Shown: positions 4,868-8,228, counted from the stretch's first letter. The stretch: 64,000 nucleotides of DNA from Candidatus Portnoybacteria bacterium (GCA_028688325.1 JAQTYI010000001.1:168820-232819), one strand, 5' to 3'. Notes: generated by a model not told the origin, from the letters alone. Numbers and translations are program-made.

Positions 4868-5623
4868 ATGAGTCGCGCATCAAAACATCTCAAAGCTATT
4901 CTCAGCTGGTGCCTTGACCTTATCTTCCCCCGCTCGTGCCTGGGCTGCGGCCAAGACGGCTCCTACCTATGCCGAGATTGCCGCGACTCTCTGCCGATTG
5001 CCAGCTGCGCCAATTGCCCTTTTTGCGGCCGCCGCTCGCCCTTGGGATACGCCTGCCAAAAATGCCGCCGGCAGCATCATTCTTCTATCTCGGGAATTCT
5101 GATCGCCTCCGACTGGAATAATTTATTGCTTCGGCAAATAATTTACGAATACAAATACCGATTCGTCAAAGAGCTGGCCGATCCGCTTTCAAACCTGGCG
5201 ACAAATTTTTTAGAACGGATTGATTTTATTAAAACGCTGAGGTGCTCCGAAACCGAGATAATCGTCATTCCCGTTCCGCTGCATAAAAAACGCTTTGCTT
5301 GGCGGGGGTTCAACCAATCAGAACTGCTGGCGCAACAAATCAGTAGAAAATTTAATACGGCCGTAAATAACGACATTTTAATTCGCTCCCGCCACGCGCT
5401 TCCCCAAAGAGAGGTGGCGGATAAAAAAGCTCGGGCTGCCAACATCAAAAACGCTTTCGCGCTGTCGCCAAAATTAAATTTGAATGATGATGCCATAAAA
5501 AATAAAATTATTATTCTGGTCGACGACATCTGCACCACCGGCTCAACCTTTCAAGATTGCGCGCGGGCGCTGGCGCCGCTTAAACCCAAAGAAATCTGGG
5601 GGCTGGTCATCGCCAGAGGATAG
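4868..5623 (+). CDS. comF: ComF family protein: double zinc-ribbon followed by a phosphoribosyltransferase-like domain.
   Basis: The N-terminus has CLGCGQDGSYLCRDC...CANCPFCGRR...CQKC. The C-terminus has the PRTase motif IILVDDICTTGST. Confidence 0.75.
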   Translation: MSRASKHLKAILSWCLDLIFPRSCLGCGQDGSYLCRDCRDSLPIASCANCPFCGRRSPLGYACQKCRRQHHSSISGILIASDWNNLLLRQIIYEYKYRFVKELADPLSNLATNFLERIDFIKTLRCSETEIIVIPVPLHKKRFAWRGFNQSELLAQQISRKFNTAVNNDILIRSRHALPQREVADKKARAANIKNAFALSPKLNLNDDAIKNKIIILVDDICTTGSTFQDCARALAPLKPKEIWGLVIARG

Positions 5624-5727
5624 GGATAGCTCCGGCGCCGCGGTTGGATTATCTTCTTTTTATTTGCTATCATGCCTATGAAAGGCCGGATGAAAAATCC
5701 GCACTAAATGCATCCGGCGCAAAAATT

Positions 5728-6051
5728 ATGAAAAAGATAAAAAGGAATCCCGAAATCGCCTGGAGAGAAGAAGAAGAGATGAGAAATAAAGTGGAAGAGA
5801 TTTTAAAACAGGGAGGAGAAACAGAAGAAGTGAGCAAAAAAGGGACCGTAACGCTTGTTTACTCTGGAGCGATGCATCAGTTGAATCTCTTGGGAGGAGA
5901 AATCTGGAAGCTATGCGACGGAACTCGGACGGAGGAAGAAATCGGAGAAGAATTATTAAAAACATTCGATGCCGAACGGGATATTATCTTAAAAGATCTC
6001 AAAGAATTCATCCTGGACCTTCAAAATAAGAAATGGCTTTTTTATGAATAA
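5728..6051 (+). CDS. PqqD-family peptide chaperone (RiPP recognition element).
   Basis: The stretch VTLVYSGAMHQLNLLGGEIWKLCDGTRTEEEIGEELLKTFDAERDIILKDLKEFILDLQNKKWL matches the PqqD fold pattern. Its stop overlaps the start of the next gene (ATGAATAA). The track ORF begins at a TTG at 5644; the ATG at 5728 is preferred. Confidence 0.65.
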   Translation: MKKIKRNPEIAWREEEEMRNKVEEILKQGGETEEVSKKGTVTLVYSGAMHQLNLLGGEIWKLCDGTRTEEEIGEELLKTFDAERDIILKDLKEFILDLQNKKWLFYE

Positions 6052-7054
6052 AAACACTCCCGCCATGATGCCATTGGCGGCCAATTGGGCGCTAACCGTA
6101 AGATGCAATTTCAACTGCAACCACTGCTACTCTCGGACGGATAGCAGCCCCGAATTGGCTTTGAAAGAGATAAAAGTCATCGTTGACAAATTAGTCCGTT
6201 CCCGTGTTCTTTTTGTGAACTTTGGCGGAGGCGAACCGCTGCTGCGAAAAGACTTGTTTGAAATTGCAAACTACGCGAAACGCCGAGGATTGCACATCTC
6301 TATGAACTCGAACGGATCTTTAATAACGAAAGCGGCGGCGAAAAATATAAAAGAATCCGGTTTTCGCCAGGTCGGAATAAGCATGGATAGCCATCTGTCC
6401 GGGATACACGATAAATTCAGAAACGCTCCGGGAAGCCATAAAAAAGCGATCGCAGCAATAGGCCGCCTGAAAAAGGCCGGCATCGAAGTCAGCGTTTCAT
6501 CGGTGATATGCAAGATCAATCACACTAATTTCGAAAAGATCATCGCTCTCGCCAAGAAATTAAAAGTTAATAAGATAAATCTGCACAACTACAAGTGCGG
6601 CGGCCGGGAGTTCGCCAATCGCGACAACCTTGATCTGTCGCCAGAGGAATGGCGCGATTTTTACGGCAAAGTCCTCGAGATAAAAAGCCGAGAAAAAGAA
6701 ATGGATATTTCCCTGGACGACCCGATAATCGCCTCGCTGAAAAATACGGAAAATAAATCTTTGGTGCAAGGGAGCATCTGCGGAAAGCTGTCTTTTTATA
6801 TCAAGTCCAACGGAGATATGACTCCGTGCGGCTTCATTCCTACAAAGATAGGAAATATTCTGACGGACTCCTTTAAAGAAGCATGGGAGAGCTCGCCGAT
6901 ATTACATACAATGAGAAACAAAGAGCCGAAAGGCAAATGCAAGAAATGCAAATTTTTCACTTCTTGCATCGGAGGTTGCACCGCAAGGGCGTATGCCATA
7001 AGCGGCGACTTCAACTCACCTGACCCTCATTGCTGGTATGAGCCGAAAAATTAG
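6044..7054 (+). CDS. Radical SAM protein with a C-terminal SPASM domain (PqqE/MftC/AlbA-like peptide maturase).
   Basis: CNFNCNHC is the CxxxCxxC SAM-cluster motif. GGGEPLL is present. The C-terminus has the Cys-rich SPASM region CGKLSF...CGFIP...CKKCKFFTSCIGGCTARAY...CW. Confidence 0.85.
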   Translation: MNKNTPAMMPLAANWALTVRCNFNCNHCYSRTDSSPELALKEIKVIVDKLVRSRVLFVNFGGGEPLLRKDLFEIANYAKRRGLHISMNSNGSLITKAAAKNIKESGFRQVGISMDSHLSGIHDKFRNAPGSHKKAIAAIGRLKKAGIEVSVSSVICKINHTNFEKIIALAKKLKVNKINLHNYKCGGREFANRDNLDLSPEEWRDFYGKVLEIKSREKEMDISLDDPIIASLKNTENKSLVQGSICGKLSFYIKSNGDMTPCGFIPTKIGNILTDSFKEAWESSPILHTMRNKEPKGKCKKCKFFTSCIGGCTARAYAISGDFNSPDPHCWYEPKN

Positions 7055-7133
7055 GCGTTCGCCGATTTAATGACGCTGCGGTTGAAGAAAAAGGTCCCAT
7101 GGATTATAATATCAATGAAAGGAGGTGCGTTTT

Positions 7134-7193
7134 ATGAAGATAAAATATATTCAACCGAAAATAGTCGGGAGTTCCAGTATTCATCCTTGCTGA
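7134..7193 (+). CDS. Candidate 19-aa precursor peptide MKIKYIQPKIVGSSSIHPC.
   Basis: The ATG at 7134 is preceded by AAAGGAGGTG at a 7-nt spacing, a consensus Shine-Dalgarno. The ORF lies in the 163-nt gap between the two SPASM genes and ends with a single C-terminal Cys. There is no other support. Confidence 0.3.
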   Translation: MKIKYIQPKIVGSSSIHPC

Positions 7194-7217
7194 TGATATC
7201 CTGCTGAACGAACAATT

Positions 7218-8156
7218 ATGCCAATGAATTTGAGCGCGCCCATTCGGGTGTATTGGGATGTGCGCGCCGATATTAATACTGAAAAACCGGCAAGCGGCGC
7301 CGAAAAAACCGTTATCGCCATTTTGGAAAGATTAACGCGGGAAAAAATATTCTATTTATCGATTTCGGGATGGGAGAATATATCCTATGAGGCGTTGCGC
7401 GAAATGCTGCCCGGCTTGGATAAAAACGGCATCTCGGTCTCGTTGATGCTTTCGGGCGGAAAAACACTCCCCGAAAACGAATTACTTTTACACGCAAGTT
7501 ATGCAAAAGAATTCGTTTTTGAAATAGATTCTGAAAAAGATTTGACGAAGTTATCTTCGCTTCAGAAAATATTAAAAAAAACACCGGCAAGAATAAGCGT
7601 TTCCATATATCCGCATGAAGGAAATTACGGCCGAATCCCTTCGATCATCGAATATTACGCAAAAAATGGAGTCCAAAATTTCATTATTCCGGCTCCCGGG
7701 ATCGCCGACAAGTCCAAAATCTCCGCACGCGACCATTCCCTCAGGGAGAAAATAGCACGCGCTATTAACAGCTCCCCTTCCTCGCGGAACGGTACCCTGA
7801 ATTTTATCGTCCACGATCCCTTTTTGTGGAAGCTGCTCGACCCAAGGTGTTTTGAAAATAAAAAGATGACTTTTGAAGGATGCCAAGCGGCTGATTCGAT
7901 AGCTTATATTGATTTTAAGGGCGATGTCTTTCCCTGCTTGTTGCTGCCAATAAGATTGGGCAATCTGCTCCAAGACAGTTTAAAGGAAATATGGTCGTCG
8001 AAAGAAAGGAAAGCTGTCAGAAAAAAGATAGAAGACATTCCTGAAAATTGTAAAAAATGTTCCCGGCTCTCGGAATGCAACGGCGGGTGCAGGGGCTTAT
8101 CATTATTGATCAACAATAATATCTGTTCGAAAGACCCAACCTGTCCCGTTTGTTGA
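7218..8156 (+). CDS. SPASM-domain protein related to radical SAM enzymes but lacking the CxxxCxxC SAM-cluster motif (degenerate rSAM paralog).
   Basis: The C-terminus carries CQAADSIAYIDFKGDVFPC...CKKCSRLSECNGGCRG...CSKDPTCPVC, a 7-Cys SPASM-like motif. The N-terminal barrel region (VYWDVRADINTEK, LSISGWEN) has no Cys triad. Confidence 0.6.
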   Translation: MPMNLSAPIRVYWDVRADINTEKPASGAEKTVIAILERLTREKIFYLSISGWENISYEALREMLPGLDKNGISVSLMLSGGKTLPENELLLHASYAKEFVFEIDSEKDLTKLSSLQKILKKTPARISVSIYPHEGNYGRIPSIIEYYAKNGVQNFIIPAPGIADKSKISARDHSLREKIARAINSSPSSRNGTLNFIVHDPFLWKLLDPRCFENKKMTFEGCQAADSIAYIDFKGDVFPCLLLPIRLGNLLQDSLKEIWSSKERKAVRKKIEDIPENCKKCSRLSECNGGCRGLSLLINNNICSKDPTCPVC

Positions 8157-8192
8157 GCGCCCATAAATCATAATTGAAACAATAAATAAAAT

Positions 8193-8228
8193 AACGCCGT
8201 TAACGGCGTTATTTTATTTATGACGGAC
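8193..8228 (+). terminator. Rho-independent terminator closing the comF-pqqD-rSAM-SPASM operon.
   Basis: AACGCCGTTAACGGCGTT is a perfect hairpin and is followed by ATTTTATTT. Confidence 0.6.

Follow-up and report, generated by a model that had tools for sequence, protein, structure and literature searches.

A minimal GeoRSP radical SAM cassette with a candidate precursor peptide in Candidatus Portnoybacteria

The window analyzed here is a 64-kb stretch of DNA from Candidatus Portnoybacteria bacterium (assembly GCA_028688325.1), and the subject is a compact gene unit at positions 5728–8221. This unit probably represents a minimal GeoRSP cassette that has been kept in Candidatus Portnoybacteria. 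It would consist of a PqqD-family protein, a radical S-adenosylmethionine (rSAM; the cofactor, SAM)/SPASM enzyme, a precursor peptide, a SPASM-only paralog of the enzyme and a terminator, and a probability of about 0.7 is assigned to this reading. GeoRSP designates three curated protein families, TIGR04302, TIGR04303 and TIGR04304, which are the top NCBIfam matches of the three proteins encoded in the unit. The name and the three families are already known; what is added here is a strong candidate for the substrate of this orphan family. The candidate is a 19-codon open reading frame (ORF) located between the enzyme and its paralog. Judged by comparison of sequences, this ORF of 19 amino acids (aa) is probably the missing substrate of the GeoRSP system. 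GeoRSP is a named orphan, and a conserved precursor candidate makes the system directly testable.

A first-pass annotation of the region had proposed a host of the Candidate Phyla Radiation (CPR) type, and this proposal is correct: identical proteins, located by exact-sequence look-up, are filed in GenBank under Candidatus Portnoybacteria from metagenome-assembled genomes, on a contig of 788,852 bp. The layout that it described is present in the ORF map and in the raw sequence, i.e., the order of the ORFs, the overlap of the rSAM and PqqD genes, the CNFNCNHC motif, a 163 nt gap, the 19-codon ORF and a hairpin. It had also taken the pairing of PqqD and rSAM/SPASM proteins to mark a peptide-modification cassette. 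This agrees with the PqqD ORF, which passes the models for PqqD and for the recognition elements (RREs) of peptides that are made on ribosomes and modified after translation (RiPPs).

The 19-codon ORF and its relatives

The spacer between the rSAM gene and the second SPASM gene (163 nt, positions 7055–7217) houses the small ORF, which is at positions 7134–7193 on the plus strand and would encode the candidate GeoRSP precursor MKIKYIQPKIVGSSSIHPC. The Shine-Dalgarno (SD) sequence AAAGGAGGTG (7118–7127, plus strand) is 6 nt upstream of the ATG and is unchanged in the window and in the related loci L017, L111 and L112. A promoter-like site, TTGAAG-17-TATAAT, is found just upstream of the small ORF (7082–7110, plus strand) and has matches at 10 of 12 positions. 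Its -35 (TTGAAR) and -10 (TATAAT) segments are kept in L112, where six of the 17 spacer bases differ. Two other readings of this segment were considered and rejected: a GTG start at 7125 for the small ORF, which is inside the SD sequence, and an overlapping 45 aa ORF (7070–7207), which has a stop codon in L112 that results from one synonymous change in the peptide gene.

The small ORFs constitute a family of 18–22 aa that is found in nine independent GeoRSP lineages. Every copy ends in His-Pro-Cys-stop, and every copy, including those from other phyla, has an AGGAG-type SD sequence a few nt upstream of the ATG. The peptide is MKKYMKPRVVGSSNVHPC in both L002 (Desulfuromonadaceae) and L004 (Geoalkalibacter), MKKYIKPRVVGSSNVHPC in L108, MKKYCKPRVTASGNVHPC in L026, MNVKKIKYFKPKIIGSTSFHPC in L101 and MKKSYVTPRIVGSAVVHPC in L107. 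Among the CPR relatives, L017, L018, L019 and L111 have MKIKYIQPKIVGSSNIHPC, with the ending ...SSNIHPC, and L112 has the same peptide as the window. Positions M1, Y, P, S(-6), H, P and the C next to the stop are invariant. Most substitutions between the genes are synonymous. Those from L002 and L108 differ by eight synonymous changes, one of them a TCG to AGT serine switch, and by a single replacement. In L112 the identical peptide is maintained through six synonymous changes, while the adjoining paralog is only 61% identical. The first-pass annotation had set conservation of the small ORF in relatives as a test beforehand, and the ORF is indeed kept in related GeoRSP loci.

When the GeoRSP set, whole window included, is read in six frames (13,501 segments), a hidden Markov model (HMM) of the peptide gives 12 matches with E ≤ 1e-11; the next best match has an E value of 0.18. 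The best E value is 5.9 in 75 control loci with other rSAM/SPASM genes (541 kb, 24,958 segments). Of 80 metagenome loci listed from generic rSAM patterns, approximately 13 are GeoRSP, and the remainder were used as negative controls. By these comparisons the small ORF is far beyond chance and is a real coding gene, and it is the best candidate substrate, the role first proposed for it on the basis of the window alone. Pfam and NCBIfam scans place the peptide in no family. A concatenated-peptide query found no match in a collection of 5.8 billion proteins, and the peptide has therefore apparently never been gene-called. In GenBank no protein is annotated between the rSAM enzyme and the paralog, since the two accessions are consecutive.

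The location of the peptide gene is not fixed. It is between the rSAM and paralog genes in the window and in L002, L004, L026 and L108, but in L101 it follows a Se/S-carrier gene and in L107 it is 8 kb upstream of the rSAM gene, adjoining a NosD-like gene. This variation in position rules out an upstream ORF (uORF) or attenuator role and marks the small ORF as a gene of the system in its own right. The peptide and the enzymes are also found to co-vary. In a neighbor-joining tree the rSAM protein of the window clusters with that of L101, the PqqD protein of L101 is the nearest one outside the lineage of the window (54% identity), and the L101 peptide is the most similar to that of the window outside the CPR lineage. 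No other precursor was found in the GeoRSP loci, where one was sought for the Nitrospirota-type systems: all-vs-all clustering of 2,265 small ORFs gave only shadow ORFs of conserved genes, and inspection of the larger gaps between rSAM and paralog in L022, L023 and L024 revealed nothing.

The GeoRSP proteins and their gene neighborhoods

The PqqD-family protein, a putative peptide chaperone (RRE) of 107 aa, is encoded at positions 5728–6051 (plus strand) and clearly passes the Pfam PqqD model, PF05402, with 58.3 bits. A TTG start at 5644 was rejected because the model alignment begins at the ATG at 5728. The rSAM/SPASM enzyme (336 aa, 6044–7054, plus strand) matches the Pfam domains Radical_SAM and SPASM. 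It displays the motif C21-x3-C25-x2-C28 (CNFNCNHC) and a SPASM region with seven cysteines. The rSAM start and the PqqD stop share 8 nt (ATGAATAA), and overlaps of 4–23 nt are present in nine of nine gene-called relatives. An overlap of start and stop suggests that the two proteins may be made in a 1:1 ratio. The closest sequence matches of the rSAM enzyme in the PDB are SkfB, at the top, and PqqE (E = 1.9e-14), both with E values near 1e-14.

With TIGR04303 the rSAM enzyme scores 460.9 bits (cutoff 400), and the match extends over model positions 3–325 of 325; its scores with all other rSAM families are far under the respective cutoffs. The PqqD ORF has TIGR04302 as its best match (97.9 bits, cutoff 100) with the whole model covered, and the second SPASM protein has TIGR04304 as its best match over the full length (162.9 bits, cutoff 300). 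By these assignments the cassette is a member of an already named family and not an unrecognized system. The earlier description of an uncharacterized system stands in that no function is on record, but the three families had been curated as GeoRSP, and GenBank labels this very rSAM protein "GeoRSP system radical SAM/SPASM protein"; homologues are labeled likewise in public records. A full-text literature search found no mention of the GeoRSP name or of the TIGR accessions, and nothing relevant to the peptide or to combinations of PqqD, SPASM, ArsP and NosD. For the GeoRSP family the searches revealed neither a function nor a substrate nor a solved structure.

The three genes are in the order PqqD, rSAM, SPASM protein in the window, as in GeoRSP, and this order is kept in Nitrospirota, Desulfuromonadales-type and other loci. 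GeoRSP elsewhere also has the three proteins in this order with overlapping PqqD and rSAM genes. One difference is in the hosts, which are Desulfuromonadales- or Nitrospirota-type elsewhere and CPR (Portnoybacteria) here. As far as it could be checked, the family definition includes no precursor.

The second SPASM protein (312 aa, positions 7218–8156, plus strand) is, by its alignment, a full-length pseudo-radical-SAM protein. It aligns with the rSAM enzyme from end to end at 24% identity and has VRADIN in place of CxxxCxxC and SGWEN in place of GGGEP; all seven SPASM cysteines are kept. The SAM-cluster motif is present in none of 18 members of the paralog family, and the invariant positions among these are P8, W13 (P-x-R-x-x-W), H199-D200-x-F-x-W, C222, C240, C278, C281, C287, C291 and C309. 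An AlphaFold 2 model of the paralog has a mean predicted local distance difference test (pLDDT) score of 77 and a predicted template modeling (pTM) score of 0.79. The best PDB folds for this model are SuiB (TM score 0.71), PqqE (0.67), CteB, anaerobic sulfatase-maturing enzyme (anSME) and SkfB. On the basis of the motifs and the predicted fold, the paralog is a pseudo-radical-SAM protein whose auxiliary-cluster sites appear intact. The first-pass annotation was correct in describing a degenerate rSAM paralog, as the catalytic motifs are lost, but not in considering it unusual, as it is a standard component of GeoRSP (TIGR04304).

The paralog family is small, with 134 representatives (50% clustering, E ≤ 1e-30) of 1.84 billion. 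L101, L103 and L109 have no paralog, which makes it an accessory component. A similar condition is found in other pseudo-SAM/SPASM proteins, e.g., TIGR04347 of the Halobacteria, where the rSAM-SPASM fold and the SPASM cysteines are kept and CxxxCxxC is lost. However, TIGR04347 gives only 32 bits on the paralog described here, and here the operon also encodes an active paralogue as its partner. Two loci have toxin-antitoxin genes in this region. HicAB genes are directly after the GeoRSP rSAM gene of L109 (11066–11520), in the expected place of the paralog, and L006 has an insertion between the rSAM and paralog genes (5972–7679) that consists of a RelE/ParE-like pair and a nucleotidyltransferase-type pair.

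A recurrent neighborhood surrounds the GeoRSP genes of non-CPR hosts (L100–L110, e.g., L107 1247–15953, L108 4812–13694 and L101 327–9422). It includes NosD-like beta-helix proteins, CarboxypepD_reg, ResB-like, OpuAC-like and Phosphonate-bd-like proteins and a protein of about 180 aa. Further neighbors are Sulf_transp (YeeE-like), a 636 aa ArsP_1 permease, Cupin_2, a class-V aminotransferase (Aminotran_5, cysteine-desulfurase-like) and sometimes a Se/S carrier (Se_S_carrier). This neighborhood hints at a link to the trafficking of sulfur, selenium or metals in the cell envelope. No homologues of the recurrent neighbors are present in the 64-kb window, and the CPR lineage retains the four-gene core alone.

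There are at least three diverged CPR versions of the cassette, with paralogs 100%, 77% and 61% identical, and outside its own lineage the rSAM enzyme of the window has no more than 59% identity to any relative. The GC content at third codon positions (GC3) of the rSAM gene is 0.558, which is host-like; values for the paralog (0.486) and the PqqD gene (0.407) are lower, and GC3 does not settle the question of recent transfer. The bare core, the diverged CPR versions, the limit of 59% identity outside the lineage and the host-like GC3 of the rSAM gene suggest an old acquisition that may have been maintained vertically since in the CPR lineage. If GeoRSP makes a cofactor or carrier, as in the tentative model below, the survival of a bare four-gene core in a CPR genome of about 0.8 Mb would imply a physiological role. 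The most pared-down of the versions found here is the CPR copy, a convenient minimal system, and the cassette would add to the small number of rSAM peptide pathways reported from episymbiont lineages with reduced genomes.

Proposed pathway and alternative explanations

In the proposed pathway a promoter-like site and a strong SD sequence of its own, both seen in the sequence, would drive expression of the 19 aa peptide. The proposed leader is KIKYIQPKIV and the proposed core GSSSIHPC-COOH. The discrete PqqD/RRE protein would bind the conserved N-terminal segment K-x-Y-x-[KQ]-P-[KR]-[IV]-[IV] as leader and hand the peptide to the rSAM enzyme, a step proposed because of the PqqD/PqqE, MftB/MftC and RRE-dependent sactipeptide and ranthipeptide systems. 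The rSAM enzyme would cleave SAM at the C21/C25/C28 cluster and take a hydrogen atom from the core, S(-6)...H(-2)-P(-1)-C(0)-COOH, and its two SPASM clusters would serve to ligate the substrate and to return electrons. The favored reaction would be either an oxidative decarboxylation of the MftC type with crosslinking of the C-terminal Cys or formation of an intramolecular thioether by the Cys, because every copy has Cys as its final residue and the best-scoring characterized relatives (AhbD, NirJ and MftC) are oxidative decarboxylases. The pseudo-rSAM paralog, which has no SAM cluster but an apparently intact twin-cluster SPASM domain, would probably have a non-catalytic part, either in holding the peptide or in relaying electrons, and is dispensable in some lineages. 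An unusual chemistry is indicated by the obligatory C-terminal Cys in the S...HPC core, the decarboxylase-related rSAM enzyme and the dedicated pseudo-rSAM partner.

A product similar to a cofactor or carrier, as with PqqA and MftA, fits better than an antibiotic, because the peptide hardly varies between phyla and genes for immunity or export are lacking. A more specific model is possible but tentative. GeoRSP may make a new peptide-derived cofactor or carrier, where MftC-like chemistry (oxidative decarboxylation, a crosslink through the Cys thiol, or both) acts on the invariant HPC-COOH of an 18–22 aa precursor with the assistance of the twin-cluster pseudo-rSAM protein, and where the product feeds a periplasmic sulfur, selenium or metal module (NosD-like, ArsP_1, YeeE-like, cysteine desulfurase) in free-living anaerobes.

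Two established cofactor systems are among the closest comparisons. Mycofactocin (MftA, MftB, MftC) also has a discrete PqqD-family chaperone with an rSAM/SPASM enzyme and a short conserved precursor with a reactive C-terminal residue, and the rSAM enzyme of the window is a full-length match to TIGR03962 (E = 6e-51). The score, however, is 173.6 bits against a cutoff of 265, the GeoRSP precursor ends in HPC and not in GVY, and GeoRSP has the additional pseudo-rSAM paralog. No MftD, MftE or MftF genes were found adjoining the cassette. The PQQ system (PqqA, PqqD, PqqE) similarly combines PqqD and rSAM/SPASM proteins with a precursor of about 20 aa, and PqqE is among the nearest solved structures both by sequence and by the predicted fold of the paralog. 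The rSAM enzyme, on the other hand, has only 112.8 bits with TIGR02109 (cutoff 381), the PqqD ORF gives 45.2 bits with TIGR03859, under the cutoff of 46, the GeoRSP peptide is without a Glu...Tyr pair, and no pqqB or pqqC was found.

Several observations weigh against the cassette and pathway as proposed. The TIGR04302 and TIGR04304 scores are under the curated cutoffs; as judged by these scores the CPR copy of GeoRSP is therefore divergent. Position -4 of the peptide varies (S, N or V), contrary to an Asn-specific crosslink of the NxxC type. The cassette has no protease or exporter, which leaves leader removal and the fate of the product unexplained. In addition, of the GeoRSP loci with good flanks approximately half have no HPC peptide within 5–10 kb; these are mostly of the Nitrospirota type (L001, L005, L007, L021, L109 and L110). 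In these loci either the gene is elsewhere or another substrate is used.

The product could instead be a secreted antimicrobial or signaling RiPP of the sactipeptide or ranthipeptide type. This is unlikely, but of the alternatives it fares best. The architecture of PqqD, rSAM/SPASM and a short Cys-containing precursor is that of sactipeptide and ranthipeptide systems, and the predicted fold of the paralog is nearest to SuiB and CteB. The K-K-x-Y-x-K-P-x-[LV] leader presumably resembles those of ranthipeptides such as freyrasin PapA. The maturases AlbA, SkfB, CteB, PapB and StsB are also RRE-dependent rSAM/SPASM enzymes that act on the Cys thiol of a short precursor. The GeoRSP system differs from these in that the RRE is a separate protein and the single Cys is C-terminal, and scores with all of the curated models are far below cutoffs, e.g., StsB 128.6 vs 625, PapB 87.5 vs 340 and AlbA 87.7 vs 850. 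A thioether-type reaction is compatible with such low scores. The core hardly changes between CPR bacteria and the Desulfuromonadaceae (L002) and Geoalkalibacter (L004) loci, contrary to a product of this type, and no transporter, protease or immunity gene is in the cassette.

A further alternative is that the HPC peptide is a genuine gene of the neighborhood but not the rSAM substrate, e.g., an unmodified carrier that binds metal, sulfur or selenium, and that the PqqD and rSAM proteins act on another peptide or on the SPASM paralog. The non-CPR neighborhoods, rich in genes for sulfur, selenium and metal handling (ArsP_1, Sulf_transp, Aminotran_5 and Se_S_carrier), are compatible with this, as are the location of the peptide gene far from rSAM, by NosD-like or Se/S-carrier genes, in non-CPR hosts such as L101 and L107, and the lack of a local HPC peptide in about half of the GeoRSP loci. 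It is nevertheless rather improbable. In CPR none of those accessory genes is in the 64-kb window, yet the peptide gene is inside the three-gene unit, and the peptides of the window and L112 are the same despite divergence of the paralog to 61% identity. PqqD proteins are moreover peptide chaperones, and the GeoRSP loci contain no other conserved small ORF that could be found. The peptide as substrate of the rSAM enzyme is the preferred reading.

A non-peptide function of the rSAM enzyme had been named at the outset as the outcome that would speak against a peptide-modification system. After GeoRSP, the best NCBIfam matches of the enzyme are AhbD (heme b synthase, 215.9 bits), NirJ2 (198.9 bits) and NirJ (175.9 bits), and some JGI records label homologues 'AdoMet-dependent heme synthase'. 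A tetrapyrrole enzyme of the AhbD/NirJ type, in an alternative heme or heme d1 pathway with the small ORF irrelevant, is nonetheless very improbable. The scores are far under the curated cutoffs of 500–650 (AhbD 500, NirJ2 500, NirJ 515), a discrete PqqD/RRE gene is predicted from the overlap to be translationally coupled to rSAM in every locus, a co-varying peptide is linked to the GeoRSP system, and no tetrapyrrole genes were called in the surroundings of the cassette or close to other GeoRSP loci. An anSME activity is similarly distant, with 94.5 bits for TIGR03942 (cutoff 349), and no sulfatase gene is near the cassette in the window.

The first-pass annotation had included in the system the gene at positions 4868–5623 (plus strand), which encodes a ComF-family protein with a double zinc ribbon and a phosphoribosyltransferase domain (Pfam DZR_2, Pribosyltran) and has 98 bits with TIGR00201 comF (cutoff 233). 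That this protein and the cassette form one functional unit, with the phosphoribosyltransferase-like protein tailoring the peptide or cofactor, is hardly credible: the genes are adjacent on the same strand and the arrangement is kept in L017 and L018, but these are 97%-identical relatives, so that the synteny is without weight, whereas no ComF homologue is within 5–10 kb of any GeoRSP locus examined from other lineages, and a 104 nt gap with a weak terminator-like hairpin (5631–5648) separates comF from the PqqD gene. In CPR genomes comF commonly occurs as a competence gene on its own, and it is judged here to be a neighbor gene outside the system.

Terminator and other features of the window

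The cassette is closed by a hairpin at positions 8182–8221 that has a perfect 18 bp stem. Its delta G is -25.7 kcal/mol (z = -5.2), and none of 200 shuffled sequences folds equally well. The terminator placed earlier at 8193–8228 covers the core of this hairpin. A tRNA-Ser gene on the minus strand (8274–8361) is convergent with the operon. The hairpin faces this gene and is therefore probably a two-way terminator, for the operon on the plus strand and for the tRNA-Ser gene on the minus strand.

The segment directly 3' of the cassette (8274–9522) has genes for tRNA-Ser(UGA) and tRNA-Ser(GCU) on the minus strand and for tRNA-Arg(GCG) on the plus strand. An 84 aa GIY-YIG ORF (8451–8705, minus strand) is situated between the two tRNA-Ser genes. 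Three other genes of the window, which have no evident tie to the cassette, encode a PrsW-family intramembrane protease (17060–17875, plus strand), a VanW/PG_binding_4 protein (18675–20405, plus strand) and a TrbC/VirB2-type pilin of type IV secretion (23662–24438, minus strand).

An ORF of more than 1,140 aa (positions 1–3431, minus strand) runs off the start of the window. Its N-terminus consists of tandem repeats similar to excisionase or helix-turn-helix segments (...YSQEYLSLRxRxGKLxAKKIGRxWMTT...), and its C-terminus has Gly/Ser/Thr-rich repeats like those of surface or tail-fibre proteins. Bacteria usually decode AUA with a lysidine-modified CAU tRNA, and a tRNA-Ile with a UAU anticodon is uncommon. 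Such a tRNA-Ile, anticodon UAU, is found by ARAGORN at positions 35472–35547 of the window (plus strand).

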